Below, piece after piece: positions 3,496 to 37,620 of a stretch of 64,000 nt of DNA. Numbering within the stretch: position 1 is the first letter of the stretch; every line of letters begins with the position of its first letter. The notes under the pieces were generated by a model. The model had not been told where the DNA came from. It did not search any database and was given only the letters and a program-made list of their open reading frames with translations. Made by a program: the position numbers and the translations under genes. The DNA is from Alteromonadaceae bacterium (GTDB taxonomy: Bacteria > Pseudomonadota > Gammaproteobacteria > Enterobacterales > Alteromonadaceae). The stretch lies in the NCBI GenBank assembly GCA_038141035.1, contig JAYQHI010000045.1, positions 14,618-78,617 on the forward strand, in the 5' to 3' direction.

Positions 3496-3505
3496 GATTA
3501 ATTCC

Positions 3506-5695: not shown

Positions 5696-5713
5696 TAATT
5701 CACTACTCCGTGT

Positions 5714-8172
5714 TATTTGGAACTTGGCGTTAAATGCCAAATATTTTTAACATAATCTTCAATTGAGCGATCTGAGTTAAATTTACCCATCATCGCGGTA
5801 TTCATTATTGCCATACGAGCCCAGCGTTTTGAGTCGCGGTAGGCAAAATCGAGTTTTTGTTGGGCATCACAATATGATTGATAGTCAGCTAAAACTAAAT
5901 ATGGGTCACCACCATCTAATAAACTGTGCTTGATAGCGGATAGCTCATAAGGGTGTCCTGGCGTGAAAAAGTCACTATCTAACCAGTCTAATATCGTTTT
6001 TAGCTCAGGGTTGGAAGTATAAAAAGCGAAAGGGTTATAGCCCTTAGTACGTATTTCTTTTACTTGCTCAACCGTATTACCAAAGATAAATATATTGTCG
6101 TTACCTACTCCTTCTGCTACTTCAATGTTTGCACCATCTCAGGTACCGATAGTTACGGCACCATTCAATGCTAATTTCATATTACCGGTACCAGACGCTT
6201 CTTTACCTGCCGTTGATATTTGCTCAGAAACATCAGCGGCGGGAATGATCTTTTCAGCTAGGCTAACGCGATAATTAGGTAAAAATACAACTTTTAACTT
6301 GTTTTGAATACGCTCATCGTTATTAATTTTTTCAGCCACTTTATTAATGGCATAAATAATCTCTTTTGCTAGGTAATATCCCGGTGCTGCTTTCGCGCCA
6401 AAGATAAAAACTCTAGGTTGCATTTCGAGTGATGGATTAGCTAATAACCTATGGTACAAGGCTAAAATATGCAAAAAGTTTAAATGCTGGCGCTTATATT
6501 CGTGTAAGCGTTTAATTTGTACATCAAAAATGGCATCAGCACTCACTTTTACACCGGTTAATTTTAAAATTTCTTCGGCTAAGCTTTCTTTATTTTTACG
6601 TTTTATCGCCATAAATTCTTGCTGAAACTTGTCATCGTCAGCTAAAGTTTTTAACGAAGTTAAACTGTCTAAATTTTTCGCCCAGTCGCCATCTACATAT
6701 TTTGATAATAGCTCAGCCAATAACGGGTTACATGATTTTAACCAACGACGTGGTGTAATACCGTTTGTTACATTGGTTAATTTATCAGGCCATAAAGCAT
6801 GAAACTCAGGAAACAGATCTTGTTTCACTAGTTTAGAATGAATTTCAGCCACACCGTTAACTTTATGTGAAGCAATAACACATAAATTTGCCATGCGTAC
6901 TTGTCGTTCTTGGCCTTCGGCAATGATTGAGAGCTTACCTCGCATGTGAAAATCATTTGGCCATTTTTCTTGAACTTCTTTATTTAAAAAATCTTCGTTA
7001 ATGTGATAAAGAATTTCTAAATGGCGTGGCAACACTTTTTCAAATAATTTAACCGACCATTTTTCTAATGCTTCTGGTAATAGCGTATGGTTAGTGTAAG
7101 AAAATATTTGACGACACATAGTCCACGCGTCATCCCAAGGCATCTCGTATTCATCCACTAAGGTACGCATTAATTCCAAAATAGCAATGGTAGGGTGGGT
7201 ATCATTTAATTGTATCGCCGTTTGTTTGGTAAATTCTTGCCAATTTATACCGTGTTTTTTTCTGATGGCGGGCAATAATATCTTTAATGGAACAAGCACA
7301 GAAAAAATACTGTTGAATAAAACGTAGTTCTTTCCCGGCATCATGCTCATCGTTAGGTAAAGTACTTTCGATACGGTTTCAGCTAATACGTTTGAGTTAT
7401 GCGAACGTAAATAGTCACCCATGTTAAATAGGTGCCAGTTAAATGCTTCGTCGGCTCTACTTTCCCATAAGCGTAATACGTTCACGGTATCGGTATTGTA
7501 GCCAACAATAGGAATATCCCAAGCAACACCTTTGATCTTAGTGCTGTGGTGCCAAATAGATTTTACCTTACCGTCAGCTTGTGTTTGGTGTTCAACGTGG
7601 CCATACAAAGGAATATGCTGCGAAGACTCTGGCCGACAAACTTCCCAAGGGTTGCCATATTCACGCCAAATATCGGGCATCTCTACTTGTCGGCAGTTGT
7701 CAAAACTTTGTTTGAATAAACCGTGTTGATAATGAATGCCGTAACCGGTTGCCGGGTAATCTAACGTTGCTAAGGAATCAAGAAAACAAGCGGCCAAACG
7801 GCCTAAACCACCATTGCCTAAGGCTAAATCAGCGCCTTGTTCACATAAATCAGTTAAGTCATAACCGAGCTCGGCAACAGCTTCTTTTGCTTGTTGGTAA
7901 ATATCTAAATTATGGAGATTGTTTGATAATAAACGTCCCATTAAGTATTCAAGCGATAAATAATTAACACTGCGTAAATCTTCGTTGCTTTGACGTGAAC
8001 GAGTGGCTTGTAATTTACTGACCACTAAATCATTTACGGCTAAACAGGTTGCCTGCCAATAGGCATCACGATTATCAGTATCTGATAATTCATTTTGGGT
8101 AAATTTTAAATGATGTTCAATGGCTGCTTTTAATTGAGCACTTGTTACTTGTGAATTTGTGTTACTAACCAT
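5714..8172 (-). pseudogene. glgP: glycogen/maltodextrin phosphorylase GlgP with an in-frame TGA and a compensated double frameshift
   Basis: ORF 6139..8172 ends ...EASGTGNMKLALNGAVTIGT*. The same frame continues DGANIEVAEGVGNDNIFIFG ... FNSDRSIEDYVKNIWHL to a TAA at 5714-5716. The TGA (6139-6141) replaces the conserved Leu of the TIGTLDGAN motif. Between about 7255 and 7355 the track translation ([34 protein letters not shown]) is off-frame. The alternative frame reads the conserved [32 protein letters not shown]. Confidence 0.88.
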
Positions 8173-8384
8173 AATGATAATCTTACTCGTTATGTTGCGA
8201 TACCTCGTTTAGAATACAGCAACGAAAGTTAAGTTTTTAAATTACAAAGTAATTCTTTGGTGTTTGCGACTACTACATAATAAATGCTAAGCATAGATCT
8301 TCCTACAAGATATAGACCACAAGTAAAAATAAAATAGAAATCTGATGATGAATTATGCCGATGTCTATTCTCCGAGCAACGTAT

Positions 8385-8398
8385 TACATACGTATGCA
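8385..8398. promoter_or_regulatory. candidate LacI-family operator, near-palindrome TACATACGTATGCA
   Basis: 14-mer with a central CG and one mismatch to perfect dyad symmetry. It lies in the divergent glgP / alpha-glucosidase intergenic region, 39 bp centre-to-centre from a perfect copy. Confidence 0.5.
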
Positions 8399-8423
8399 TG
8401 CTTGATTTGTTATTATTTCAGCA

Positions 8424-8437
8424 TGCATACGTATGCA
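8424..8437. promoter_or_regulatory. candidate LacI-family operator, perfect palindrome TGCATACGTATGCA
   Basis: Perfect 14-bp dyad with a central CG, the architecture typical of LacI/GalR-type sugar repressor sites. It lies about 110 bp upstream of the alpha-glucosidase start. Confidence 0.55.
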
Positions 8438-8547
8438 CTTGGTTGCACTAAATTTGTGAGATTCCTATGATTTAAGCACTATTATAGGTAGCAGGTTTTA
8501 CTTTGTTAAGTTAAGTCTAGGTTACAAAAAGAAAACTCGGGATTATT

Positions 8548-10170
8548 ATGAAACAAGAAGCATGGTGGCGTGGCGCAGTAATTTATCAAATTTACCCACG
8601 TAGTTATATGGATGCCAATAATGATGGCATCGGTGATCTACCCGGTATTATTGAAAAATTACCTTATATTAATAGCCTCGGCGTTGATGCTATTTGGATT
8701 TCGCCATTTTTTAAATCGCCGATGAATGATTTTGGTTATGATATTAGTGATTATCGTGAAGTGGATCCTATGTTTGGCACCATGGACGATTTTGATGAGT
8801 TAGTTAGCAAAGCTAAAACCTTTGATATCAAAATTGTCATAGATCAGGTGCTCAGCCACACTTCAGATCAACATGCTTGGTTCGAAGAAAGTCGCCAAAG
8901 CCGAGATAACCCTAAAGCCGATTGGTATGTTTGGGCGGATGCTAAACCTGATGGTAGCCCGCCAAATAATTGGTTGTCTATTTTTGGTGGTGTTGCTTGG
9001 CAATGGGAGCCGCGTCGTGGCCAATATTATTTACACAACTTTTTAACCTCGCAACCGGATCTCAATTTTCATAATGAAGATGTCAGAGATGCGGTTCTTG
9101 ATAATGTAGAATATTGGCTGAAAAAAGGAGTGGATGGTTTCCGCCTAGACGCGATTAATTTCTGTTTTCATGACAAGTTATTAAGAGATAACCCTGCTAA
9201 ACCGTTAGAGGCGAGAAAAGGCAGTGGTTTTAGCGAAGATAACCCTTATGCGTTTCAATATCATTATTACAATAATACTCAGCCTGAAAATATCGGCTTT
9301 ATGGAAGATATTCGAGCCTTGATGGATATATATCCTGATGTGGTGACTTTAGGTGAAATATCATCGGAAGATTCACTGCAAACTATGGCGGACTATACTT
9401 CGGGAAATAAGCGTTTGCATATGTCTTACAGTTTTGAATTATTAGGCAATGACGGTAGCCCAGCTTATATTCAAAAAACTGTTGAAGAATTAGAAGAAAA
9501 AATGACCGATGGTTGGCCATGTTGGGCGATTGGCAATCATGATGTTGCCCGAGTTATTTCCCGTTGGGGCAATGGTGGTGCTCCTGCCGAGCAAATGAAA
9601 ATGTTAAATGCCATGTTAATGTCGTTACGTGGCAGTGTTTGTAGTTATCAAGGTGAAGAGTTAGGTTTAATCGAAGCGGATATTGCTTTTGAAGATTTAC
9701 AAGATCCGTACGGCATTGCTTTTTGGCCTAACTTTAAAGGTCGTGATGGTTGTCGGACACCAATGCCTTGGCTGAAAAATGCCAGTCATGGTGGTTTTTC
9801 AAATGCAGATAAAACTTGGTTACCCGTTAGTGAAGAACATATTAGTGGCAGTGTTGATGTTCAATTAGCTCAACCAAACTCAGTATTACAAGCCTATTGT
9901 CAATTCATTACTTGGCGCAAAGAACAAGCTTGTTTGTTATATGGCGATATTGAATTTGTTGAAACTAATAATCCAAATACTTTGGCATTTATTCGTCGTT
10001 ATCAAGGACAAGCGATATTTGCATGTTTTAATTTTAGTGGCCAAAAGCAGGTTATTAACTTACCGCAAGCAACTGAGCTCACCTTGCTAGTAGGGCATGG
10101 GCTTGAAATGGCAACGGCTGGTGATAATGAACTGTTACCTTATCAAGTGAAGTATTTTACTATGGTTTAA
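8548..10170 (+). CDS. GH13 alpha-glucosidase / oligo-1,6-glucosidase-like
   Basis: 540-aa ORF: WWRGAVIYQIYPRSYMDANNDGIGDLPGI, GVDAIWISPFF, GVDGFRLDAINF, TLGEISSED, IGNHDVARV. These are the conserved GH13 regions I-IV. Confidence 0.92.
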   Translation: MKQEAWWRGAVIYQIYPRSYMDANNDGIGDLPGIIEKLPYINSLGVDAIWISPFFKSPMNDFGYDISDYREVDPMFGTMDDFDELVSKAKTFDIKIVIDQVLSHTSDQHAWFEESRQSRDNPKADWYVWADAKPDGSPPNNWLSIFGGVAWQWEPRRGQYYLHNFLTSQPDLNFHNEDVRDAVLDNVEYWLKKGVDGFRLDAINFCFHDKLLRDNPAKPLEARKGSGFSEDNPYAFQYHYYNNTQPENIGFMEDIRALMDIYPDVVTLGEISSEDSLQTMADYTSGNKRLHMSYSFELLGNDGSPAYIQKTVEELEEKMTDGWPCWAIGNHDVARVISRWGNGGAPAEQMKMLNAMLMSLRGSVCSYQGEELGLIEADIAFEDLQDPYGIAFWPNFKGRDGCRTPMPWLKNASHGGFSNADKTWLPVSEEHISGSVDVQLAQPNSVLQAYCQFITWRKEQACLLYGDIEFVETNNPNTLAFIRRYQGQAIFACFNFSGQKQVINLPQATELTLLVGHGLEMATAGDNELLPYQVKYFTMV

Positions 10171-10212
10171 TTGTTCATCGAAAGTTACTGATTAACCTGA
10201 GTTGAGGTTGAT

Positions 10213-10240
10213 AAAAAAGCTTCTTTTAGAAGCTTTTTTT
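10213..10240 (+). terminator. rho-independent terminator after the alpha-glucosidase gene
   Basis: AAAAGCTTCT-TTT-AGAAGCTTTT hairpin followed by a T-run. Confidence 0.7.
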
Positions 10241-10428
10241 ATGCTTGTACTTTTCAGCTTAACTTATATTTAGAGTAAAAAATCCACATAAACTTGTAAA
10301 GCGTAGATTCCTGTCTTATACCTTTAATAACTCAATTTAACTTAAACATTTTTTAAAAAAATGTCTTGTTTACATTAAGTTGTAATAAATATTACCTAAA
10401 AACATGATGATTAAAGGGAAATTAAGGG

Positions 10429-13002
10429 ATGAATAAGTCTAACTATGTATCCACTAGTTCACTTGCACTAGCGATCAGTTGTGCGCTTGGAACTACTTCA
10501 TTTAATACTCTTGCACAAGAAGCTAAAGCCACCGATATTGAACGTATCGCCGTAGTAGGTTCTCGTGCTGCGCCAAGATCGATTGCTGATTCACCGGTAC
10601 CTATTGATATTGTAGGTGCTGATGAATTAGGAAAAAATGCCTCTGCCGATATGCTTGATCAATTACAGGCCGCGGTTCCTTCTTTTAATGTTCGCGCACA
10701 ACCTATTAGTGATGCAGCAACCTTAATTCGCCCGGTTAACTTGCGTGGTTTATCTAGTGATAGCACGTTAATTTTATTAAATGGTAAACGCCGACATCGA
10801 GCGTCAGTAATTGCTTTTCAAGGCGGTGGTGTTAATGATGGTGCTCAAGGGCCTGATATTTCAGTTATTCCAAGTATTGCCTTAAAACAAGTAGAAGTAC
10901 TTCGTGACGGTGCCGCGGCACAATATGGCTCAGATGCCATTGCTGGGGTAATGAATTTTGTTTTAAAAGATGATGCCGACGGTGGCTCTGTTTCACTTCG
11001 TCAAGGCGCTTATTATGAAGGTGATGGCGATACAACCGTATTAGATGGCAACATTGGCTTACCTTTCACCGATCAAGGTTTTGTTAATTTATCTATGCAA
11101 TATAAAACGGCCGATGCTACCAGCCGAAGTGTGCAACGGCCAGATGCCCAAGCTATGTTAGATGCCGGTAATACCGCTATCAGGACACCAGCTGCGCAAG
11201 TATGGGGTAATCCTGAAATTGATGATGATATTACTTTGTTTGCCAATGTCGGTTTAGATTTAGGTAATGATAAAGAATTTTATCTTTTTGGAAATTATTC
11301 CGAACGAGATGTTACCGGTGGTTTTTATTATCGAAATCCCCACACGCGGGGCAATGTTTATTCATTAGATGATGGTGATACGCTATTAGTAGGCGATCTT
11401 GATGGATTAAATCAAGGAGTGACCTGCCCAACCGTTAATATCACTACCGATAATGTGTTAACACAAGCCGATTATGCGCTAATTGCCGATCCTAACACTG
11501 CTGTAGGCCAAAATTGTTTTGCTTTTAACGAGATGTATCCTGGTGGATATACGCCTGAATTTGGTGGCAATATAACCGATACCTCTTTAGTGGTAGGCAC
11601 TAAAGGTGAAATTAAAGGCGGATTTTTAGACGAAGCTTATTATGATATTAGTGGCTCGGTTGGGCGCAATGAATCTAAATTTTTCTTAGGTAATACTGTT
11701 AATCCATCAATGGGGCCTGATTCTCCTAACTTTTTTAATACCGGTAAATATATTCAATTAGAAAAAGCATTTAACTTTGATTTAACGCAACAAGTTGATG
11801 TTGGCTTATTAGATCCGATGAATGTAGCAACAGGGCTTGAGTGGCGAGAAGATACCTTTGAAATAATTTCAGGAGAAGAAGCTTCTTGGTTAAAAGGCCG
11901 TTTAGCTGATCAAGAATTTGTTGCTGGTGCGCATGGTTTTGCCGGTTTTAGTCCTGAATCGCAAGGGGAAAATACCCGCCGAAGCTTTGCCGCTTATATT
12001 GATGTGGAAGCAAATTTAACGGAAGACTTTTTAGTGGGAGCTGCATTACGCTATGAAGACTATTCATCGTTTGGCGATACCACTAACTACAAATTAACTG
12101 CACAATATATGCTAAGTGATGAAATCTCGTTACGTGCATCTCATAGTACAGGCTTTCGAGCGCCAACTGTCGGCCAAGAAAATGTCGTTAACACACAAAC
12201 AACTAATTTTAACGGTAATTTAGTACAAGCAGCTACTTACCCACCGATGCACCCTGTCTCGGTTTATTATGGTGGTATGGCGTTACAACCGGAAGAATCT
12301 GAAAGTTTTGCTTTTGGTGTCGTTTATGAAAACAGCGGATTTTTCTTAACGGCAGATTATTACCATATTGAGGTGACGGATCGCATCGCTCAAACCAGTA
12401 AAATATCAGTTCTACCATCAGATTATGCGGGCTTGCGTAATGCCGGAGTAGAATTTCCTGAAACCTTAGATTTAGTAACTTTTTTTGCTAATGACTTTGA
12501 TACCTCCACACAAGGCTTGGATGTGGTTGCAAACTACAGTATGGGGTTATTTGGTGGCGATACAAAATTCAGCTTAGCGTATAACTACAATGCGACTGAG
12601 GTTGATAATAAGGGGCAATATACATCAGACTTCAAAGTTAGACGGTTAGAAGAAGGTATTCCTGAACATCGAGGCACATTTACCATCTATCAAAATTGGG
12701 ATGATGTTAGCATGTTTATTCGAGCTAATTATTTTGGTGAATATTTTGCCGTACATGCCGATGAAAATGATCCTCAATGGACCGAAACAGCAGACTCGGC
12801 TATCACTATTGATGCCGAAATGAGCTATTTTGTTAATGATGCTTGGAAAGTTGCCGCAGGGGCGAATAACTTATTTGACCAAGAAGCGCAAAAGCTGCAA
12901 CAAGGAGGAGCTTATGGTGAGATTGGTGGTGTGTATTATGAAAGTGGTCCGTTTGATTACAATGGCGGCTTCTATTATATGAAAGCAACTTACAGTTTTT
13001 AA
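10429..13002 (+). CDS. TonB-dependent outer-membrane receptor (probably maltooligosaccharide uptake, by context)
   Basis: Signal peptide, plug-domain motifs (LRGLSSDSTLILLNGKRR, VEVLRDGAAAQYGSDAIAGVMNF), a long beta-barrel and a terminal ...YMKATYSF aromatic residue. Confidence 0.9.
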   Translation: MNKSNYVSTSSLALAISCALGTTSFNTLAQEAKATDIERIAVVGSRAAPRSIADSPVPIDIVGADELGKNASADMLDQLQAAVPSFNVRAQPISDAATLIRPVNLRGLSSDSTLILLNGKRRHRASVIAFQGGGVNDGAQGPDISVIPSIALKQVEVLRDGAAAQYGSDAIAGVMNFVLKDDADGGSVSLRQGAYYEGDGDTTVLDGNIGLPFTDQGFVNLSMQYKTADATSRSVQRPDAQAMLDAGNTAIRTPAAQVWGNPEIDDDITLFANVGLDLGNDKEFYLFGNYSERDVTGGFYYRNPHTRGNVYSLDDGDTLLVGDLDGLNQGVTCPTVNITTDNVLTQADYALIADPNTAVGQNCFAFNEMYPGGYTPEFGGNITDTSLVVGTKGEIKGGFLDEAYYDISGSVGRNESKFFLGNTVNPSMGPDSPNFFNTGKYIQLEKAFNFDLTQQVDVGLLDPMNVATGLEWREDTFEIISGEEASWLKGRLADQEFVAGAHGFAGFSPESQGENTRRSFAAYIDVEANLTEDFLVGAALRYEDYSSFGDTTNYKLTAQYMLSDEISLRASHSTGFRAPTVGQENVVNTQTTNFNGNLVQAATYPPMHPVSVYYGGMALQPEESESFAFGVVYENSGFFLTADYYHIEVTDRIAQTSKISVLPSDYAGLRNAGVEFPETLDLVTFFANDFDTSTQGLDVVANYSMGLFGGDTKFSLAYNYNATEVDNKGQYTSDFKVRRLEEGIPEHRGTFTIYQNWDDVSMFIRANYFGEYFAVHADENDPQWTETADSAITIDAEMSYFVNDAWKVAAGANNLFDQEAQKLQQGGAYGEIGGVYYESGPFDYNGGFYYMKATYSF

Positions 13003-28281: not shown

Positions 28282-28542
28282 CTATTTTTTATAGCTAGCA
28301 ACCATATTGTCAACTTTGCTATTAGCATCTTCTGCTAACATTTTTGCTTTTTCAGCTGCGTTTTTTGCAGCTTCAACTGACTTGTTGGCAGCGCTTTGCT
28401 GCTTTTTAAGATCAGCAACTTGGCTAGATAAAGTATCAACCTTATTGCTTAATGTTGATACTTGTTGCTCTAATGCTTCATTGCTGGCACAACCCGCCAT
28501 TAAAATGATCGTAGCTGCTATAGTTATTTTTTTAATTAACAT
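28282..28542 (-). CDS. lpp: Braun-type major outer-membrane lipoprotein Lpp
   Basis: 86 aa with lipobox LMAGC, heptad-repeat alpha-helical Ala/Lys/Ser-rich sequence, and a C-terminal ...SYKK (terminal Lys, as in E. coli ...YRK). Confidence 0.8.
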   Translation of the reverse strand: MLIKKITIAATIILMAGCASNEALEQQVSTLSNKVDTLSSQVADLKKQQSAANKSVEAAKNAAEKAKMLAEDANSKVDNMVASYKK

Positions 28543-28641: not shown

Positions 28642-28944
28642 TTAAGCGTTATCGATGACATAACCAATCAATTCTTCCATCAGTTTCTTTTTGATTTCTA
28701 ATTGTTGATCAGGCGAGAGCTGGTATTTTTCGGCAAGTTCAATATAGTCATCAGGTGATAAACTCACGGTTAATCTTGGACGTTTTGGCCGTTTATTTGT
28801 TGTTAATCCTAAAATGGTACGAATTTGGTCTGAGGGGCTAATACCGGCTTCGAGTGCTTCTCGTCGGATCGCCATTTGAATTTTTTCATCCATATCAAAA
28901 AAGCAATTTGTGTTGCTTTTGCTGCCGTAACGGATGATTGCCAT
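28642..28944 (-). CDS. small hypothetical protein with two ribbon-helix-helix-like segments (possible DNA-binding regulator)
   Basis: 100 aa. Segment 1 is CFFDMDEKIQMAIRREALEAGISPSDQIRTILGL and segment 2 is LTVSLSPDDYIELAEKYQLSPDQQLEIKKKLMEEL. Each has the beta-strand/helix/helix pattern of CopG/Arc/MetJ folds. This is the last gene of the pspA-like operon. Confidence 0.45.
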   Translation of the reverse strand: MAIIRYGSKSNTNCFFDMDEKIQMAIRREALEAGISPSDQIRTILGLTTNKRPKRPRLTVSLSPDDYIELAEKYQLSPDQQLEIKKKLMEELIGYVIDNA

Positions 28945-28969
28945 TTCTCAGGGATTTTTCTTGCCACAA

Positions 28970-29605
28970 TTAACTTCCTGGATACATGTCGACAATGTCG
29001 GTTAAAGGTCTAAATAAGGTTAAGAATACATCAGTATCACCGTCAGACCATACTTCTACATCAATACCACGATCTTCTGCGGGATCATATAAAGTATAGA
29101 GCTCAAATTGCTCGCCAGCCTCTTTTCCTTCATAAGCACTTAATGTTTCACTGCGATGGTCTTTTTTATGAAAATAACCGACTTGGGCGAATACATGTTG
29201 TTGATAAAGATCGCTTGTCCAGCCTTGCGTTTTATCATTGTCTGCTTGGCGGGTTAATTGCGCTTGGTTATTTTCTTCAAAAATGTCAGAAAACTGCTCT
29301 AAATCAAATAAGTTTTCAACGTCTGCATGCTCAATTTTTAAAGAGAATTTTAAATAACTTTTATCATCTTCTTCAAGCGCTAGATAAAGTTCCGTTGCGT
29401 TTTCACCGGTTAATACCCACTCGGTTTGTGTTAATCGCTCATATTCATAACTATTAACCGCGGTTACTTGAAATTGTTGTTGACGCAGATTTGCAGGTAA
29501 GGCAAAGCTGTCGGTTAACACAATAATATCACCGGTAGTGAGATCTTTAACGGAATTAAGTTGGCGAATTTCTTTTTTCACCAAATATTTTTTTAGAAAG
29601 CTCAT
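28970..29605 (-). CDS. YjfK-like protein (DUF2491/DUF4178 family)
   Basis: 211 aa. The N-terminal region (GDIIVLTDSFALPANLRQQQFQVTAVNSYEY...TEWVLTGENATELYLALEEDD) matches the DUF4178-type pattern. It sits directly after a PspA-family gene, as yjfK does in the E. coli yjfIJK operon. Confidence 0.6.
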   Translation of the reverse strand: MSFLKKYLVKKEIRQLNSVKDLTTGDIIVLTDSFALPANLRQQQFQVTAVNSYEYERLTQTEWVLTGENATELYLALEEDDKSYLKFSLKIEHADVENLFDLEQFSDIFEENNQAQLTRQADNDKTQGWTSDLYQQHVFAQVGYFHKKDHRSETLSAYEGKEAGEQFELYTLYDPAEDRGIDVEVWSDGDTDVFLTLFRPLTDIVDMYPGS

Positions 29606-29640
29606 CGTAACGTTACTCTTAATGGGTTGTACTTAAACGC

Positions 29641-29676
29641 AATAAGCGGCTACCAATGACTTGGTAACCGCTTATT
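29641..29676 (-). other. intra-operon stem-loop between the pspA-like and yjfK-like genes
   Basis: AATAAGCGGCTACCA / TGGTAACCGCTTATT: a 15-bp stem with one mismatch and a 6-nt loop. No U-tract follows on either strand. Confidence 0.55.
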
Positions 29677-29689
29677 TAATAACAAAACC

Positions 29690-30379
29690 TTATTTTTGTT
29701 TTGCTTTTAAGCGCTCTAACACTGAGTTGGCACTGGCATCCGCTTGACCAATACCTGCTTCTTTTAATTTTGCTTCTAACGAGTTATCTGAGTTTTCAGA
29801 CTCTAATACTTCAGCAGCTTTCATGCGATCATCAAACTTTTGTTGTTTGGCTTTAATACGCTCTAATGAGTCTTTTGCATTTAATAACTTAGAGTTACTT
29901 GATGAAAAGTTATCTGTGATAGCTGATGTTGCTTTTTGCACGCTTTCCGTGGTTTTTACCATAGATAATTGGCGTTTGTATTCTGCCACTTGGCGTTCAC
30001 TCTTTTTCACTAACTCTTTCAAACGATTAGCGTTACCTTCAAAACTTTCTAACGCTTGTTGTTGAGTTGTTAATTCGCTTTCTAAGGCGGCAATTTTTTC
30101 AGCTACTGCTAAGGCTAAGGTTTCATCACCTTTTTCTAAAGCTTGGACAGCGTAGCCTTCGTGTTCAACAATTTCACGTTTAACGCGATCAACTTCACGA
30201 CTTGCTGCCATTTGCTGTGCCATAACGCCAGTTAAGTCACGTTTAGCTTGGGTTAAATGATTTTCGGCATCACGAATTTCTTGTTCAAAAATACGGGTTG
30301 CGTTGGCATCAACAATAGCTTCACCAACTTCAGTTGCGCCGCCACGAATTGCCGTCATAATTTTTTTAAAAATGCTCAT
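29690..30379 (-). CDS. PspA/IM30 family protein (YjfJ-like)
   Basis: 229 aa of all-helical coiled coil with the typical family N-terminus MSIFKKIMTAIRGGATEVGEAIVDANATRIFEQEIRDAENHL. Confidence 0.85.
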   Translation of the reverse strand: MSIFKKIMTAIRGGATEVGEAIVDANATRIFEQEIRDAENHLTQAKRDLTGVMAQQMAASREVDRVKREIVEHEGYAVQALEKGDETLALAVAEKIAALESELTTQQQALESFEGNANRLKELVKKSERQVAEYKRQLSMVKTTESVQKATSAITDNFSSSNSKLLNAKDSLERIKAKQQKFDDRMKAAEVLESENSDNSLEAKLKEAGIGQADASANSVLERLKAKQK

Positions 30380-30395: not shown

Positions 30396-30809
30396 TTAGA
30401 TTAAGTATTCACTCATGTCATCGATAACTTCGATGGCATTGTTGTTTAGTACAGTTAACTCATGCTCAATATCATCAAATGACGAGCTAATGGCTAAGGC
30501 GCCAAAAATTACATATTTATCGCCAATTTTTGAAAACGATGATAATGGCATTGGAATATTCATTTCTAGCATGCTTTCATGCATGGCAGCAAAACATTCG
30601 GGCTTAACTTCATCCTTACCCCAAAGGTAAGTAATACAAAGAATTTGATCATCGGTTACAGATAAAAATATCGGTAATTCTTCACGGCCAATGATCGAGA
30701 TTTGCAATACGTCTACTTCGCCTGAAATTGGCTGGCAATCAAAAACCATTCCTGTGTCTGAATTATCAGCAAGTGTGTTTAAGTGATCCGCTATCTTATG
30801 AATGTTCAT
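30396..30809 (-). CDS. YjfI-like protein (DUF2170)
   Basis: CQPISGEVDVLQISIIGREELPIFLSVTDDQILCITYLW...PLSSFSKIGDKYVIFGAL. The track ORF starts at a TTG (30836). The ATG at 30809 has AGGA 5 nt upstream. It lies directly upstream of the PspA-family gene, as in E. coli yjfI-yjfJ. Confidence 0.6.
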   Translation of the reverse strand: MNIHKIADHLNTLADNSDTGMVFDCQPISGEVDVLQISIIGREELPIFLSVTDDQILCITYLWGKDEVKPECFAAMHESMLEMNIPMPLSSFSKIGDKYVIFGALAISSSFDDIEHELTVLNNNAIEVIDDMSEYLI

Positions 30810-30871
30810 GTTGTTCCTCATGTTGATAAGTAGCAAAAATTAAGGCGGATAATCGCGCGTTAATTTTTATA

Positions 30872-30890
30872 GGTGACATATTATGTCACC
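30872..30890. promoter_or_regulatory. 19-bp perfect palindrome GGTGACATA-T-TATGTCACC (candidate operator, promoter-proximal)
   Basis: 9-bp arms around one central base. It lies 7 nt downstream of the predicted -10 of the yjfI-pspA operon promoter. Its core, GACATAnTATGTC, is shared with two other sites. Confidence 0.55.
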
Positions 30891-30897
30891 AGAGTTA

Positions 30898-30925
30898 AAT
30901 GTAGCATTAAGACATAATATGTCAA
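30898..30925 (-). promoter_or_regulatory. predicted sigma70 promoter of the yjfI-pspA-yjfK-RHH operon with an embedded palindrome (30911..30923)
   Basis: Minus strand reads TTGACA-tattatgtcttaatgc(16 nt)-TACATT. The -35 hexamer is part of the palindrome GACATATTATGTC. Confidence 0.5.
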
Positions 30926-30935
30926 CAACTAAATA

Positions 30936-32656
30936 CTAATTATTTTTGTTAATTTGCAAATAGGCATTATTTAGCCCTTGTTGATCTCGCCATGCTTGTT
31001 GATGCAATTGGTATATTGCATGGCTACCGAGATAGTTTATTGGCACCTGAGCGGCATGCTTATAAAAGTTTTCAGGAAAAATAAAGGCCGCTCTTATTAA
31101 ATCAATATTTAACCAATGGCCTGTTACCGGTAATTTTTCAATATTAGCTAAGCGTGTTGAAGGCTTAGCGCCAATTTTACTGGCAATGGTCCAGCCCCAT
31201 TCGCCAAAGCTAGGGACATTGTCATGGTATTGCTCTACGGCAGTAAAGTCAGCGGCCGCGACAGTCTTAGCAATAGCAATAAAAGCATCTTTGGCATGAT
31301 AAGGGCTAGTTGATTGAATGCCAATTAAGCCATCTCCTGCTAAAAGTTGTTTTAAGCGAGCATAAAAGTTCACTGAATATAACTTATTGAGATCAGGATG
31401 GCTTGGATCGGGTAAATCGACAATAATGGCATCAAACACTTCACCACTGGCTAATAGTTCATCAATGGCTAGAAAAGCATCCGCGGTAATAATATGAGCA
31501 CGTTTATCTAACAGGCTATTTTCGGTCAAAAGAGTTATTTGCTTAGCAATATCGGGAGCTAAGTGGTTTTCAGGATATTTAAATAATTCAATCAACTGCT
31601 CATCAAGATCAATTAAAGTGACTTTGTTTGGCTGCCATTTAAGTACATCCCTTAATGCTAAGCCGTCTCCACCTCCGATAATTAAAATATTATCTTGGCG
31701 TGCCGAGCCGGCAAGTACGGGGGTGACTAAATAATCGTGGTAAATAAACTCATCACTGGAAGAAAATTGTAAGCGGCCATTTAAATAAAAATTGATCACT
31801 GATGAATGGCTTGAACCCATGTTACGTTCGGTAAAGGTTAGCTGTTGATAACGGGTTTTGTCGCTGTAAACGACTTTATCGAGATACAACATATTGCTCA
31901 TTTGATTAAGCCAAGCATTACCTTGATAAAAAATCACGACAATAAATAAAGCTAATAACAAGTGTAAACTGACTAAGGTTTTACGCCATGTTAATTGTGG
32001 CCAAAAACGATATAAAAATACGCCACCAATAAGTAAATTAAAGCTTGCGGTAATAGCGGATGCTTTACTGATATCAATACTGAGTAAAAATATAACCCAA
32101 ATTGCTGCGCCGATACCGGCACCAATATAGTCAGCACCGTACATAGTACCTAAATTATTTTCTAAATGTTTTTTGTGGAGAATTTCACGTACTCTGGCAA
32201 TTAAAGGAATTTCCATACCAATAAAAAGCCTAAAGCAAAGCCAAAAAAGTAAGGGGAATTAATAGCTAAAAAGCTTAGCTGTTTGAAGATGCCACCTTTA
32301 GGTAGTGCATCGGGTGGTAGCGTAAAGGTTTCCGCTAACATTTGTGGCATTAACTGAGTAATGGCGATTAACCCGCCGATCAATAAAATCGCGCTAGTAC
32401 CTAATAAGGCAATGATCAGCTCTAACCAAATAAAACCATTAAAGGCGCAGCGGATATGACGTGCGGCAAATGCGCCCATGCCCATAGCGACAATCATTAG
32501 ACCTATCATGGTGTATATCGTACTTTCCATTACGCCCAGCACTCGGCCAGCGTAATGAGAAAGTAAATACTCATAAATCAAACCACAGCCGGCTAATACG
32601 GCCATGGTTAAGATCAATAAACTATCGTCTAGTAATAATCGACGAGCGGCTTTCAT
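30936..32656 (-). pseudogene. membrane-anchored polyamine aminopropyltransferase (spermidine-synthase-like, multi-TM N-terminal domain), one frameshift
   Basis: ORF 32201..32656 plus ORF 30936..32216 together give about 7 TM helices, then a SpeE-like catalytic domain (ILIIGGGDGLALRDVL, AIIVDLPDPSHP, GEWGW). The junction is near 32216. Confidence 0.8.
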
Positions 32657-32703
32657 TAGTAACTAAAATTATTCAATAAAATGTAATTAACTTTAGTCAT
32701 TTA

Positions 32704-33606
32704 TTACGCCATTAACGCTGTTAAAATTAACGCAATAGCAATGCTGATCGCCATTTCTACAGCAGCAACACCAATGTTGTGTTGTTGATCAACTTCTTCT
32801 ACTAAATTAATACCGAATAAAACAATGCGTTTAGCAATGTTGGTTAATAAAGCCACTAATAAAGTCATCACTAAACCAAATAATAACCAACCTAATAAGT
32901 TATTAACTAAGGTTTCTGGGCTGTAGGTAAAAAAGTGGCTAGCAGCGGTGATCGCTAAAGCTGTGCTGATCACTTGGCCGGCATAACGTAATGCTAATGC
33001 AACTTGACCATTTTCAAAGGCTTCTTGTAAACAATCGTCTTGATTATATTTGGCATATTGACGCTCTTTAATACGAGTAACAATAACCAACATAGTTTGA
33101 GCCACCAAAAATCCACTAATAATAGCGATAAAGGTACTTACGGTTAAACCATGCACCCAAAGTAAAACTGCGCGGATCACTATAGCAGTGGCAATAACAC
33201 CGGCGGCATCAACAATACCCACCGTTAGGTTTTTTGCCTTAATTTGTGCGGTTTTATCTAATTTTTGTAGCGCTACACGATCATGAATAATACGGCCAAT
33301 TTTTATCAGTATTAAACCAAATATGCCATAAGCTGACATGCCAATTGCTTCCATGAGGTAACTCTCGGCATTTTCACCGGTGATCGCCCCTGTTAATACT
33401 ATGCCTAAGGCAGCAATGCTGCCCGCAACACTAATACCGAAAGCAAAGTTATCTTCTTTCGATAGCTCGTCGGTGGTATTTACGTTGGCAGATAACCCTG
33501 AAATAAATCGCATTGCGCCTAATAAAATAATGGCAATGGTTACATCAATGATTAAATAAATGAGTAAGTCTTGGGTCAGTCCGGTCATTTCTATTATGTT
33601 ATTCAT
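32704..33606 (-). CDS. integral membrane protein with four DUF350 (YjfL-like) repeats
   Basis: 300 aa. Four repeats each pair a polar loop and an N/Q residue with a TM helix: TTDELSKEDNFAFGISVAG, DKTAQIKAKNLTVGIVDAAG, LQEAFENGQVALALRYAG, VEEVDQQHNIGVAAVEMA. Confidence 0.65.
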   Translation of the reverse strand: MNNIIEMTGLTQDLLIYLIIDVTIAIILLGAMRFISGLSANVNTTDELSKEDNFAFGISVAGSIAALGIVLTGAITGENAESYLMEAIGMSAYGIFGLILIKIGRIIHDRVALQKLDKTAQIKAKNLTVGIVDAAGVIATAIVIRAVLLWVHGLTVSTFIAIISGFLVAQTMLVIVTRIKERQYAKYNQDDCLQEAFENGQVALALRYAGQVISTALAITAASHFFTYSPETLVNNLLGWLLFGLVMTLLVALLTNIAKRIVLFGINLVEEVDQQHNIGVAAVEMAISIAIALILTALMA

Positions 33607-33627
33607 CTTTTCTTCCTAAAATTCTGC

Positions 33628-34603
33628 TTATTTACCACGAGAAAAACCGCGAGATGTTGTGGTACTACTGTTTCTGAAACTTGAGCTACTTGATTTACTG
33701 TAGCTACTTTTATTGGTCGAAGTGCTTCTAAATTTATTTAAACTGCTTTGGGCTTGTTTACTTTTACTTGAAATACCAGAAGCACCGGCGCGATTTTTAT
33801 CGTAAGCACTGGTAAATTTTTGCCCTCTTTGCGCGAATGATTTACGCGTGCGAGTATCAAGATCTGTTTGTTTTTTTAATTGCGAAGGGGAGCTGTAACG
33901 GGTGCGGCCATAGTCATTATAATAACTGTAATTTCTGTTTTGACCCCAACTACTGTATGAGTGACGGCGAGAGCCAAATAAATCGCCCATCATAGAATAC
34001 ATGCCATACCATGCCCAAAACGACATGCCACTACTATCAGTTTGCCAACTGCCATAACTTGGGTTGCCAATCAGCTGTTCACCAACACCAAAATCTTGTG
34101 CCTTGTTCGCTTGCATACTTTGGCTTTTGGATAAGGCATTTACTCTTGGTAATTGACCATCTGACATATCAGCTAAAACATTTAACGGATCACTTAAGGC
34201 ATCTGAATATAATACCGGATCAGCTGCTTGATATAAGTTTAAGGTCTCTTCGTATAATGCTTGGCTGGAAGTGAACATTTGCGGATTGGTTTTTTATGGT
34301 ATTTAGTCGATCAACTAAAGCTAAAAACATTGGCCCTTGCGGGGTCGCATCTTTTTTAAATTCATTAATTAATGGTGCTAATTCAGGTTTTAGTTGTAAG
34401 ACCTTAGTAGCATATTGTTTAATTAAATTTGCATTACGAACGGTGCCATTTTCTAGCGCTTGGCTTAAGGCATTAATTCGTTGTTCAGTAATGGGAATCT
34501 GTTGAGTGATTTGTTCTTTGACTGGGTCTGAACATGCGCTTAATAACATGGTCAAGTAAAAAACAATATCCGAGAAAATGGCATTCCGTGATCCTATTTC
34601 CAT
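33628..34603 (-). pseudogene. lipoprotein of unknown function with a Ser/Arg/Tyr-rich C-terminal tail, one frameshift
   Basis: ORF 34220..34603 (lipobox LLSAC) and ORF 33628..34278 join in the T6 run 34290-34295. The tail reads ...SWGQNRNYSYYNDYGRTRYSS...STSTNKSSYSKSSSSSFRNSSTTTSRGFSRGK. Confidence 0.6.
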
Positions 34604-34624
34604 AAATTCTAATAGAGATCGATA

Positions 34625-34653
34625 TATGTAACATTTGAGACATAATATGTCTA
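34625..34653 (-). promoter_or_regulatory. predicted sigma70 promoter of the lipoprotein-DUF350-aminopropyltransferase operon with an embedded palindrome (34639..34651)
   Basis: Minus strand reads TAGACA-tattatgtctcaaatgt(17 nt)-TACATA. The layout and 13-mer (GACATATTATGTC) match the promoter at 30898..30925. Confidence 0.5.
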
Positions 34654-34766
34654 ATGGTTTGTTTGTTCTAAGGGAAATTAGTTTGTAACGTTTTGTGCTT
34701 GCTGTATATAAAATAAGGCTCTACAGTAGAGGGCGTTACGCTTTGAATACTAGTTAAGGAAACATA

Positions 34767-37620
34767 GTGGCTGTGCTTATTGAAAATGATCTTTTATTAA
34801 CTATGCAATTAACAAGGTGGCAGCAATTAGTTGCTTGTCATCAAGCAGAACTCGCTACCTTAACCGATGAACAAACCGCTTTATTAAAACAAGCGATCAG
34901 TTTAAGTGATTTTGTTTATCAAAGTATTGAACGGGCTGCCGCTGACATTATTCCATTATTTCAAGCTGAAACGCTTTTCCCTAAAGCTGATATTGATTAT
35001 TTAAGCGCGTTGCGTAACAAGCTTAAAACATGCGAAAGTGAAAGTGAGCTTCACAAAATATTGCGCCTTTTTCGTTGTCAAGAAATGGTGCGGATTGCCG
35101 TTGGTGATATTCTTGGCCAATTACCGTTAAAAAGGTCGTTATCGGCATTATCTGAACTGGCGGAGGCGTTAATTATTGCCGCCCAAGAGTGGTTAACTAA
35201 CTTATGCCAAAAACAATGGGGGATACCGCAAGATAAGCAGGGTAATCGACAAACCTTATTAGTATTTGCTATGGGAAAACTTGGCGGTAAAGAACTTAAC
35301 TTTTCGTCTGACATTGATTTGATTTTTAGTTATCCAGCTGGCGGTGAAACCGTAGGCACAAGACGTGCTTTAGATAACCAACAGTTTTTTATTCGCTTAG
35401 GACAAAAGTTAATTACAGCATTGCATCAAGTCACCGAGCATGGTTTTGTTTATCGGGTTGATATGCGTTTACGGCCGTTTGGAGAAAGTGGCCCGTTAGT
35501 GATGAGTTTCAGCGCACTTGAAAGTTATTACCAAGAGCAGGGCCGAGATTGGGAACGTTATGCCATGTTAAAGGCGCGTTTAATCGGTGATAGCCCTTAT
35601 CATCAAACATTAGAACAACTAATTAAACCTTTTGTTTATCGTCGATATATCGACTTTAGTGTGATTGAAAGTTTACGAAAAATGAAACGCATGATTGCAC
35701 AAGAAGTTCGGCGTAAACATTTAATCAATAATATAAAATTAGGCGCGGGTGGAATTAGAGAAGTTGAATTTATTGTCCAAGTATTCCAGTTAATTCGTGG
35801 TGGCAGAGAGCCTAAATTACAGCAGCGTAATTTATTAACGGTTTTACCCCTGTTATTCGAACACGGAGAAATAGAGCACGAAAGCTATAAAACGTTAGAA
35901 AATGCTTATTGTTTTTTAAGACGTGTTGAAAATATTATTCAAGCCTTGGCGGATCAACAAACCCAAACTTTACCTGATGATGAACTCAATCAAGCACGAC
36001 TAATAACAATTTTAGCTTACCAAAGCTGGTCTGATTTTTTAGTTGATGTTAATCAACATATGCAGGCGGTTCATCAAGCATTTAGTGAAATGATTGGCGA
36101 AGAATCGCCTAATCATCAAGCGCATGACGAGCATTGGCAAACCTTATTGTTAAGTGATTGGAGTGCCGAAGAGTCGATTGAATATATTGAAGAATATGCG
36201 CCATTTTGGTCGGGCACGGAAGTATGGCAATTGCTTAAGCAATTCACTGATGACATTAATAAGCGGGCAATTGGTCTTCGTGGGCGGCAAGTACTTGATA
36301 AATTATTACCTCTATTGTTATGGCATTTACAACAAAACAAAGCGTCAATCACGGTTTTTGAGCGGGTTAGTCATATTTTAAAGTGTATTATTACCCGTAC
36401 GGCTTATTTGGAATTATTATTTGAAAATGAGGGCGCGCTTAAACATTTAATTAAATTATGTAGTGCGAGTAATTGGGTAGCGGAGCAAATTGCTAACCAC
36501 CCCATTTTGTTGGACGAATTGATTGACCCACAATTACTGCATAACCCGCCAGCGTTAAGCCATTACGCTTCTGATTTGCAACAAGTGATGCTGCGAATTC
36601 CTGAAGATGACTTAGAAGCACAAATGAATATTTTGCGACAATTTAAGCAAGCGCAGCAATTACGGATAGCGGCGGCCGATATTTCAGGTGTATTACCGAT
36701 CATGAAAGTAAGTGATCACTTAACGGCTTTAGCGGAAGCTATTTTGGCGGAAGTGATTAATATTGCTTGGCGACAATTAACACTAAAACATGGTGTACCT
36801 AATAGTTTGTTAACATCTAATGATAAAGGTTTGTTAGTGATAGGTTATGGTAAAATGGGGGGACTCGAGCTGGGTTATAGCTCTGATCTTGATTTGGTTT
36901 TTATTCACAATAGTGAACTAGATGATAAAACCACGGGCAATAAACCGCTGACGGCGTCACATTTTTTATATCAAGTTAGCGCAAAAAATGATGCTTATTT
37001 TTAATACCCGCATGGCGAGCGGTATTTTATATGAACTGGATCTACGTTTAAGGCCATCGGGAAATTCAGGCTTATTAATGGTTAATATTGATAACTTTGC
37101 CAAATATCAACAAGTAGAAGCATGGATATGGGAACACCAAGCGTTAGTTAGAGCTCGTGCTATTTATGGCAGTTTGGATTTAGTAAATAAATTTAATCAT
37201 ATTCGTCAAATGATTTTATCTTTACCTCGTAATACCGACGAACTTAAAACTGCTGTTGTTGATATGCGAGCTAAAATGCGCAGTCATTTAGATAAATCTA
37301 GCGAACTTATTTTTGATGTTAAACAGGGGAAAGGTGGTTTGGTGGATATTGAGTTTTTAGCACAGTATTTAGTGTTAAATAATAGTCATCAACTCCCTGA
37401 CATTACTGAATATTCAGATAATGTGCGAATTTTTGAGTTATTGGCAAAATATCAGTTAATTACACCAGAAGAGGCCGAGCAATTTATTGCGACTTATTGT
37501 CAGTTGCGAGATTATGGCCATCGCTTAAGTTTACAAAACCAGCCGAATCAAAGTGAGCCTGAATTATTTGCTGAACAAACTCAATCAATAAGCCAAATCG
37601 TGAATAAATATTTAGCTTAA
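34767..37620 (+). pseudogene. glnE: bifunctional glutamine synthetase adenylyltransferase / adenylyl-removing enzyme GlnE, one frameshift
   Basis: GTG start. It has two nucleotidyltransferase domains (GKLGGKELNFSSDIDLIF and GKMGGLELGYSSDLDLVFIH). ORFs 34767..37004 and 36988..37620 join at the T6 run 36962-36967 (HFYIKLAQKMMLIFNTRMASGILYELDLRLRPSG). Confidence 0.92.

Follow-up and report, generated by a model that had tools for sequence, protein, structure and literature searches.

A conserved 13-bp palindrome as the putative operator of a YjfI-PspA-polyamine gene module in Alteromonadales

Introduction

What controls the two neighboring operons of a YjfI-PspA-polyamine module on the minus strand of a 64,000-nucleotide stretch of Alteromonadaceae bacterium DNA (GenBank assembly GCA_038141035.1, contig JAYQHI010000045.1; hereafter, the window)? 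The initial annotation of the window, made from its letters, described near-identical promoters in front of both operons, each with a palindrome overlapping the -35 box, and an extended third copy at the start site of the operon that carries yjfI and pspA. It read this layout as repression of one regulon by a dimeric DNA-binding protein. In this study, we analyzed the palindromes, the promoters, and the genes of the module, both in the window and in related loci. The best reading, we infer, is a self-regulated local repressor-operator circuit. Probably, a local repressor uses the three palindromes as its operators; most likely, it is a small protein with two predicted ribbon-helix-helix (RHH) units in tandem, whose gene comes last in the yjfI-pspA-DUF4178-RHH operon.

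Results

Three copies of the palindrome in the window

The module is arranged as two minus-strand operons, operon 1 from 34584 to 30936 with three genes and operon 2 from 30809 to 28642 with four. The palindrome GACATA-W-TATGTC (GACATANTATGTC) has exactly three exact matches in the 64 kb window, at 30875-87, 30911-23, and 34639-51. These sites and the promoters that they accompany are as follows.

34639..34651, no strand: putative operator A; exact match, plus strand GACATAATATGTC; overlaps the -35 box of promoter P1 of the upstream operon
30911..30923, no strand: putative operator B; exact match; overlaps the -35 box of the yjfI-pspA promoter P2
30872..30890 (13-mer at 30875-30887), no strand: putative operator C; perfect 19-bp dyad in the window, at about +1 to +19 of the transcript
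34625..34653, minus strand: promoter P1; -35 TAGACA (34653-34648), 17-nt spacer, TG at 34633-34632, -10 TACATA (34630-34625)
30898..30925, minus strand: promoter P2; -35 TTGACA (30925-30920), 16-nt spacer, TG at 30906-30905, -10 TACATT (30903-30898), predicted start at about 30890

The three exact copies are not a product of chance, because 100 dinucleotide-preserving shuffles of the window contained none. Allowing up to two mismatches added a single site, at position 164, which is at chance level. The exact-match count agrees with the three copies that the initial annotation had found by eye. Its minus-strand readings are also correct to the letter, TTGACATATTATGTCTTAATGCTACATT for 30925-30898 and TAGACATATTATGTCTCAAATGTTACATA for 34653-34625, as are the coordinates of the 19-bp dyad and its place 7 nt downstream of the -10 box of P2. 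That dyad had been quoted in its plus-strand form; the minus strand reads GGTGACATAATATGTCACC. In each promoter, the 13-bp dyad spans about -33 to -21, with its center near -27, inside the core promoter. The 13-mer of site C occupies about +3 to +16 of the yjfI-pspA operon, beginning about 3 nt past the predicted start.

Promoters and transcripts

As judged from their sequences, both operons have strong, near-consensus sigma-70 promoters with an extended -10 element. An independent promoter scan also picked out the stretch 30925-30898, as TTGACA-16-TACATT with 10 of 12 matches and the TG ahead of the -10. The letters, and for P2 the scan as well, bear out the architecture first described, in which a -35 hexamer is fused to the 13-bp dyad and followed by a 16-17 nt spacer and a TACAT(T/A) -10. 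We found no sigma-54 -24/-12 element (TGGCAC-N5-TTGC, up to two mismatches, minus strand) in either intergenic region, 30837-30935 or 34604-34766. Furthermore, Pfam and NCBIfam scans of the module proteins returned no AAA+ enhancer-binding activator. Therefore, control of this module differs from the sigma-54/PspF control of canonical psp, as had been proposed.

We also examined contigs assembled from four estuarine metatranscriptomes, which come from a strain about 97% identical to the window and whose ends are not mapped 5' ends. In each metatranscriptome, one high-depth contig (16-44x) spans only yjfI-pspA, whereas the DUF4178 gene, the small RHH gene, and operon 1 are covered at 3-5x. Upstream ends of the yjfI-pspA contigs fall at 30870, 30888, and 30909, compared with a predicted start near 30890. 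These ends are compatible with the proposed -10 and -35 boxes of the yjfI-pspA promoter, although they do not prove it.

Conservation of the palindrome in related loci

Next, we assembled 87 loci totaling 1.34 Mb. Besides the window, these comprise 80 genome loci, one per species, fetched by alignment to the RHH protein (Thalassotalea, Colwellia, Cognaticolwellia, Pseudocolwellia, Litorilituus, Shewanella, and others), and six fetched with the DUF4178 protein (Shewanella putrefaciens, S. algae, S. frigidimarina, Gallaecimonas, Paraferrimonas, and Psychrobium). Together, they contain 245 exact 13-mers against a chance expectation of 0.14, and every one lies at syntenic position A, B, or C; no exact 13-mer was found anywhere else in the 1.34 Mb. 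With three copies in 64 kb and none away from these positions, the motif is not a common repeat.

The B and C pair upstream of yjfI is exact in 84 of the 87 loci. The other three are Gallaecimonas, with one changed base, L068, where the locus is truncated, and L072. We first listed L072 as an exception without sites B and C and then rejected it as such, as the record carries a run of N there. Sites B and C are present in every related locus with a readable yjfI promoter region, apart from the one changed base in one site of one locus, so the conservation in orthologous promoters that was to be expected of real operators is there. Site A is exact at its syntenic place in 77 of the 87 loci. In these, the proposal that the two operons form one regulon gains support, but the layout does not extend to Paraferrimonas and Psychrobium, which have no site A.

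The spacing between B and C is 31-39 bp (36 in 43 loci and 35 in 27). Among exact sites, the 12 fixed letters never change, whereas the flanks occur in 65-75 distinct combinations. Promoter elements are kept around the sites as well, namely TTGACA or TAGACA, TGn, and TAaAT; the consensus is TaGACATA.TATGTCat.a.TG.TAtTAaT for the site-A promoter (74 loci) and cTTGACATAtTATGTCa...TGcTAaAT for the site-B promoter. We considered whether the central base (A/T) marks the orientation of a site and rejected this, as all combinations occur. The 19-bp dyad, which the initial annotation had presented as an extended operator, did not hold up either. An extension of at least 3 bp is found in only 5 of 75 distinct site-C flanks, and we rejected the longer dyad as the true operator because its extension is not conserved and is specific to the lineage of the window. 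What is conserved is the 13-mer itself, and the positions next to it show a weak preference for Y...R. Site-C flanks are complementary in 36-40 of 75 cases, compared with 23-31 expected. Overall, families of Alteromonadales share the 13-mer as well as its number of copies and its placement, and the palindrome is unaltered to the letter in about 90 other marine bacteria.

A candidate regulator with two predicted ribbon-helix-helix units

The last gene of operon 2 encodes the candidate regulator.

28642..28967, minus strand: candidate regulator, tandem RHH protein (about 107 aa) with a GTG start at 28967 (alignment with intact homologs)

Compared with intact homologs, this gene has two surplus T in the run 28897-28902 of the window, which shift its frame. 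In relatives, the extra bases are missing from three DNA runs as well as four RNA runs, and the +2 frameshift is probably an assembly error. Homologs are 105-110 aa long and begin with M-x-RKIPEKWQSSVKA-x-KA-x-QVAFDMDEK; at 50% identity, the family has 107 representatives, and one source labels a homolog "Ribbon-helix-helix protein." In about 100 loci with otherwise changing neighbors, the sites are accompanied throughout by a single DNA-binding candidate, the RHH gene. The 80 genome loci contain it by selection, as they were chosen with the RHH protein itself. Beyond these, it is present wherever the contig reaches, in 6 of 6 loci chosen by DUF4178 and in 5 of 5 sufficiently long loci chosen by the motif. 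We found no module of the spermine-synthase type that lacks the RHH gene. The sole negative control is the cluster yjfIJKLMC of E. coli, which is of another type and has neither the RHH gene nor the GACATA dyad.

We predicted the structure of the protein with AlphaFold2 (AF2) from two alignments. Model 1, built from 43 close homologs, reached a predicted local distance difference test (pLDDT) score of 69 and shows strand-helix-helix twice, in residues 19-52 and 67-106 (strand 19-21, helices 27-40 and 44-52; strand 67-69, helices 71-80 and 88-106). Its best global PDB match by Foldseek is AvtR (4hv0_D), with template modeling (TM) scores of 0.49/0.52 and 3.5 Å root mean square deviation (rmsd) over 106 columns, followed by single-chain Arc (1u9p) and then TraY in 9f0y. 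Model 2, from a more diverse alignment, has a pLDDT of 80.3 and leaves the two units unpacked, with no strands assigned. Its single units superpose on CopG (1ea4_B; rmsd 0.7 Å over 34 residues), on the RHH antitoxin Rv0298 (probability 0.97), and on NikA and FitA. NikA is also the best PDB profile match of the N-terminal half, at an E value of 0.26. From these models, it is likely but not proven that the small protein consists of two RHH units in one chain. The initial annotation had called for one dimeric DNA-binding protein; the likely binder is predicted to be a single chain carrying two RHH units rather than a plain homodimer.

The surroundings of the gene vary. A K+-channel-like gene (Ion_trans_2) follows it in many lineages (L082-L086 and L208-L213). 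In Psychrobium (L087, 8671-11919), EamA and pseudouridine-synthase genes push it 3 kb downstream.

Links between the protein and the site

We also scanned metagenome contigs blindly with the 14-mer TGACATATTATGTC. The scan returned at least 120 loci, most of which look like chance, and is not a regulon census. Among the matches listed, PspA or YjfI genes adjoin the motif in 11 loci, and all 5 of these that reach far enough encode the RHH protein, at 31-73% identity; the listed loci include lineages whose RHH proteins are only 31-48% identical. One of the loci (L148) is from a high-GC organism, in which the AT-rich 13-mer is nonetheless kept exactly. Three lineages have their two copies at a distance of 18 bp; there, the first provides the TTGACA, and the center of the second (TATTAT) stands in the place of the -10. 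L099 has this pair of dyads 18 bp apart upstream of yjfI in a different module with the same motif (2730-10830), where yjfI-pspA-RHH is followed by a 212-aa membrane protein and by proteins of 668 and 1765 aa, with no Pfam match among those scanned.

A distant branch of RHH proteins, 25-33% identical, occurs in the same module, with an AdoMet decarboxylase gene before it and K-channel and rhomboid genes after it. The first strand of these proteins reads LKKIQ-x-HF and the second RPRIG-x-SF. Their dyad is G(C/G/T)CAT-N3-ATG(G/C/A)C. It is still 13 bp long and oddly symmetric, and it occurs in as many copies and at the same places; the differences are at position 2 and, mirrored, at position 12. 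Pairs of dyads are 29-32 bp apart upstream of yjfI. The individual dyads are listed here.

L208: GCCATTAAATGGC and GTCATTTAATGGC, 32 bp apart
L209: GCCATAATATGTC
L210: GACACTTTATGTC
L211: GACATATTATGTC and GTCATATTATGTC
L212: GGCATATTATGCC and GTCATAATATGGC
L213: GCCATATTATGGC twice, 29 bp apart upstream of yjfI, with a near-copy, GCCATATTATGGA, upstream of the first gene

The identity of operator position 2 varies together with the third residue of the second strand. Where this residue is Thr or Ser, position 2 is A (main group, L099, L133, L167, and L148); where it is Gly or Ala, position 2 is C, G, T, or mixed. The altered dyad of the distant branch supports the RHH protein as the putative binder. 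The link to this one residue is no more than suggestive, given how few and how closely connected the lineages are.

The module and its neighbors in the window

The remaining genes of the two operons are as follows.

33628..34584, minus strand: operon 1, gene 1; lipoprotein of about 320 aa, with the signal MPFSRILFFALTMLLSAC after correction of the homopolymer at 34557 (from open reading frames, ORFs)
32704..33606, minus strand: operon 1, gene 2; membrane protein with two DUF350 (YjfL-type) domains (Pfam PF03994, E 2.9e-35)
30936..32656, minus strand: operon 1, gene 3; 7TM-spermidine/spermine-synthase-like protein (Pfam PF01564; N- and C-terminal parts of NF002956 on two ORFs)
30396..30809, minus strand: yjfI-like gene (DUF2170, CesT/Tir-like; Pfam PF09938, E 1.9e-37)
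29690..30379, minus strand: PspA/IM30-family gene of the YjfJ type (Pfam PF04012, E 1.3e-38)
28970..29605, minus strand: DUF4178-like beta-rich protein in the YjfK position (weak Pfam PF13785 match; homologs named DUF4178)

By Pfam and NCBIfam, the gene set of the polyamine-linked CesT/Tir-PspA operon is complete, with DUF2170, PspA_IM30, DUF4178, DUF350, the 7TM-spermine-synthase-like protein, and the lipoprotein, and the gene order is identical in Shewanella, Gallaecimonas, and others. The true start of the yjfI-like gene is the ATG at 30809, as homologs begin with MNIH. Compared with contigs of close relatives, the window has indels of 1-2 nt at 28897, 29572, 29587, 32222, 34290, and 34557. 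These split the RHH gene, the lipoprotein gene (at 34557 and 34290; intact in Shewanella at 316-327 aa), the 7TM-spermine-synthase-like gene (an A is missing at 32222), and the N-terminus of the DUF4178 gene. The indels are probably homopolymer assembly errors because all six fall within runs of A or T of at least five bases.

Two hairpins stand out in operon 2.

29641..29676, minus strand: 16-bp hairpin directly after the pspA stop; fold z -3.86
30834..30869, minus strand: second leader hairpin; 5' arm rich in A, 3' arm rich in U; GCTACTTAT just downstream

The downstream ends of the RNA contigs, at 29600-29660, coincide with the first of these, and depth then drops about ten-fold, from 16-44 to 3-5. 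This hairpin is a candidate partial terminator or 3' stabilizer. In the yjfI leader, which folds at -22.2 kcal/mol (z -5.2), site C would itself form an 8-bp hairpin as RNA in the window. The second leader hairpin may be an attenuator or stabilizer. Its motif GCTACTTA is present in 22 of 84 related leaders and is limited to part of Colwelliaceae, with stems that vary between species. Shewanella lacks the motif, and there the ribosome-binding site is 12-14 nt after site C. An Rfam scan across the module gave a single sub-threshold small RNA match, which we took as chance.

Outside the module, an lpp-like lipoprotein gene (28282-28542) follows the RHH gene in the window. On the other side, glnE (glutamine synthetase adenylyltransferase) is divergent from operon 1 across 34653-34767, with its start about 115 bp from site A. 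It is likewise split at an A6 run, probably near 36990. The glnE neighborhood is kept in Shewanella, Gallaecimonas, Paraferrimonas, and Psychrobium.

Discussion

A proposed repression circuit

Dyads that lie over the -35 box and spacer of near-consensus promoters, or just past the start site, occupy positions from which bound proteins repress. We propose that two RHH DNA-reading units would bind each dyad symmetrically, supplied either by two single-chain protomers or by a swapped dimer. Binding at sites A and B would block sigma region 4 at the -35 box, and binding at site C would block open-complex formation or promoter escape. Being encoded distally in the operon that it would repress, the regulator would place the circuit under negative autoregulation. 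The leaky hairpin after pspA may hold expression of the regulator about ten-fold below that of yjfI-pspA. As for the inducer, we can offer a guess: membrane or polyamine stress might relieve repression through a module protein or a ligand.

Several observations weigh against this model. The evidence for the fold is statistically weak: every Foldseek E value for the RHH protein is above 0.1, neither the whole protein nor its halves have a Pfam or NCBIfam match even at E values up to 10 or a usable PDB sequence match, and hhalign detects no similarity between the N- and C-terminal halves (probability 1.1%). The two AF2 models also disagree on how the two units pack within the chain. Site A is clearly absent in Paraferrimonas (L086, 3187-3264) and Psychrobium (L087), where only the yjfI operon has dyads, and the displaced RHH gene of Psychrobium has no dyad upstream. 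The co-variation comes from few lineages and possibly reflects one shared ancestral change; in addition, L148 and L211 retain GACATA despite a divergent first strand. With respect to transcription, the RNA ends are contig ends from a strain about 97% identical to the window, not mapped 5' ends, and one RNA contig crosses the yjfI-pspA promoter and reaches 31080. Finally, some sites are on contigs without an RHH gene, namely 13-mer pairs upstream of an SPFH/Band_7 gene (L091, 2101-2132) and of a YidC-like (60KD_IMP) gene (L153, 8922-8962), and 13-mers upstream of short (about 165 aa) PspA-family genes (L166, 4691-4703; L193, 2284-2296). As these four sites are on contigs without the RHH gene, the binding factor can at least act in trans, and they hint at a wider membrane-homeostasis regulon. 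Our scans covered loci and contigs, and there may be remote regulon members or a remote regulator.

Alternative explanations

The main alternative, which we regard as unlikely, is that the dyads are bound by a regulator encoded elsewhere. It would account for the motif on contigs without an RHH gene, where it stands in front of Band_7, YidC-like, and short PspA genes, for the unlinked RHH gene of Psychrobium, and for the weak fold statistics. However, no DNA-binding candidate other than the RHH gene stays with the sites through about 100 loci, and the dyad sequence shifts in the divergent RHH branch. The lack of any other copy in 1.34 Mb of flanking DNA also argues for a dedicated local factor.

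A protein bound at the dyads could instead be an activator or a dual regulator, as some RHH proteins and many small regulators can activate, and the yjfI-pspA transcript is abundant in situ. This seems quite improbable to us. The promoters are already near consensus (TTGACA, 16-17 nt spacer, TGn, TAnAT), and, from general promoter knowledge, a dyad centered near -27 in the core promoter with a second site past the start is typical of repression.

Alternatively, the dyads may not be protein sites at all but RNA or DNA hairpins that serve as a 5' stabilizer, attenuator, or terminator. Site C is at the predicted 5' end of the mRNA, where it can form the 8-bp hairpin in the window, and its flanks are complementary beyond expectation. 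Such a role would fit site C only, however, as sites A and B are upstream of the start, within the -35 box and spacer, and other lineages place both copies 18 bp apart upstream of the -10. Moreover, the primary sequence is invariant with no stem-like co-variation, the loop of the core stem would be only 1-3 nt, and the flank pattern fits a symmetric Y...R base preference. We consider this explanation very unlikely. Lastly, the copies are short, palindromic, and repeated, like remnants of a small mobile or repetitive element (a repetitive extragenic palindrome or a miniature inverted-repeat transposable element), but with three copies in 64 kb, fixed at syntenic promoters in dozens of genera and absent elsewhere in 1.34 Mb, this origin is hardly credible.

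The local repressor circuit can be extended by analogy, in a form that we hold to be doubtful. The tandem RHH protein might be the switch of a sigma-70, repressor-based counterpart of Psp. It might be removed from the dyads by a polyamine-derived ligand or by one of the module proteins (PspA-like, YjfI, or DUF4178) when membrane or polyamine stress sets in, comparable to the way PspA holds PspF. In some bacteria, the same operator might gather SPFH/Band-7, YidC-like, and short PspA genes into one membrane-homeostasis regulon.

What the putative operator adds

As a kind of circuit, a small autorepressor that acts on its own promoters through palindromic operators is ordinary. New here are the putative operator itself, its extreme conservation together with the variants found in nature, and the link to a PspA-family module that a protein with two predicted RHH units would provide. 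In the literature searched, we found no description of how YjfJ-type PspA modules are controlled, and a search by motif strings returned only unrelated eukaryotic and organelle sequences. The 13-bp putative operator, two located promoters, and a named candidate repressor offer a testable handle on this control, and all are conserved in tractable organisms such as Shewanella. If the model is correct, sigma-70 repression can take the place of sigma-54 activation in a PspA-family system, and a bacterial chromosomal case would join the short list of single-chain proteins with two RHH units. The natural operator variants could be used to study specificity, and the operator could serve as a search key for further regulon members.

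Comparison with known systems

Canonical Psp uses a sigma-54 promoter and the activator PspF, which is held by PspA. The module described here is similar in having a PspA/IM30-family effector under what would be a dedicated regulator from the same locus. It differs in its sigma-70 extended -10 promoters, the absence of a -24/-12 element and of an enhancer-binding protein, and a logic that would be repression.

The circuit recalls that of the RHH repressor CopG/RepA of plasmid pMV158, in which a 13-bp symmetric element covers the -35 box of an operon that is autoregulated, as we propose here. The CopG operator is a 13-bp pseudo-symmetric element that includes the -35 of its own promoter and is bound symmetrically. 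The second strand of the RHH protein, RLTVSLS, resembles the N-terminal strand of CopG. Unlike the candidate regulator, with two predicted units per chain, CopG is a dimerizing 45-aa protein with a single unit. Furthermore, the present system is chromosomal and tied to a PspA-type membrane module, with two promoters and three putative operators, and has no match to CopG at the sequence level.

According to the AF2 models, the protein would share two beta-alpha-alpha units per polypeptide with AvtR of the archaeal virus AFV6, which has two RHH units in one chain (PMC6547453), and with TraY of the F plasmid. However, there is no sequence similarity to either, the Foldseek E values are non-significant, and AF2 model 2 leaves the units unpacked. 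Their roles differ as well, as AvtR is a viral regulator and TraY a relaxosome factor.

The E. coli cluster yjfIJKLMC (YjfJ iModulon) has homologous YjfI, PspA-like, and DUF350 genes. A 1-nt promoter deletion turns yjfIJKL on, with no regulator named (PMC12492005). In contrast to the module described here, it is without the RHH gene and the dyad, and an ATP-grasp peptide-spermidine ligase replaces the 7TM-spermine-synthase-like gene.

The operon type itself is described by Ravi et al. 2024 (mSystems, PMC11237479). The accessible portions of that paper present the same gene set as one class (group 2) of the CesT/Tir-PspA operon, in which an RHH transcription factor is sometimes encoded last. 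Both this type of operon and the occurrence of an RHH gene in it are, on the basis of those portions, already in the literature. Neither these portions nor a full-text search of the paper with motif strings yielded an operator, promoter, or regulon for the operon. To this description, our analysis adds the split of the gene set into two transcription units, each with its own putative operator.

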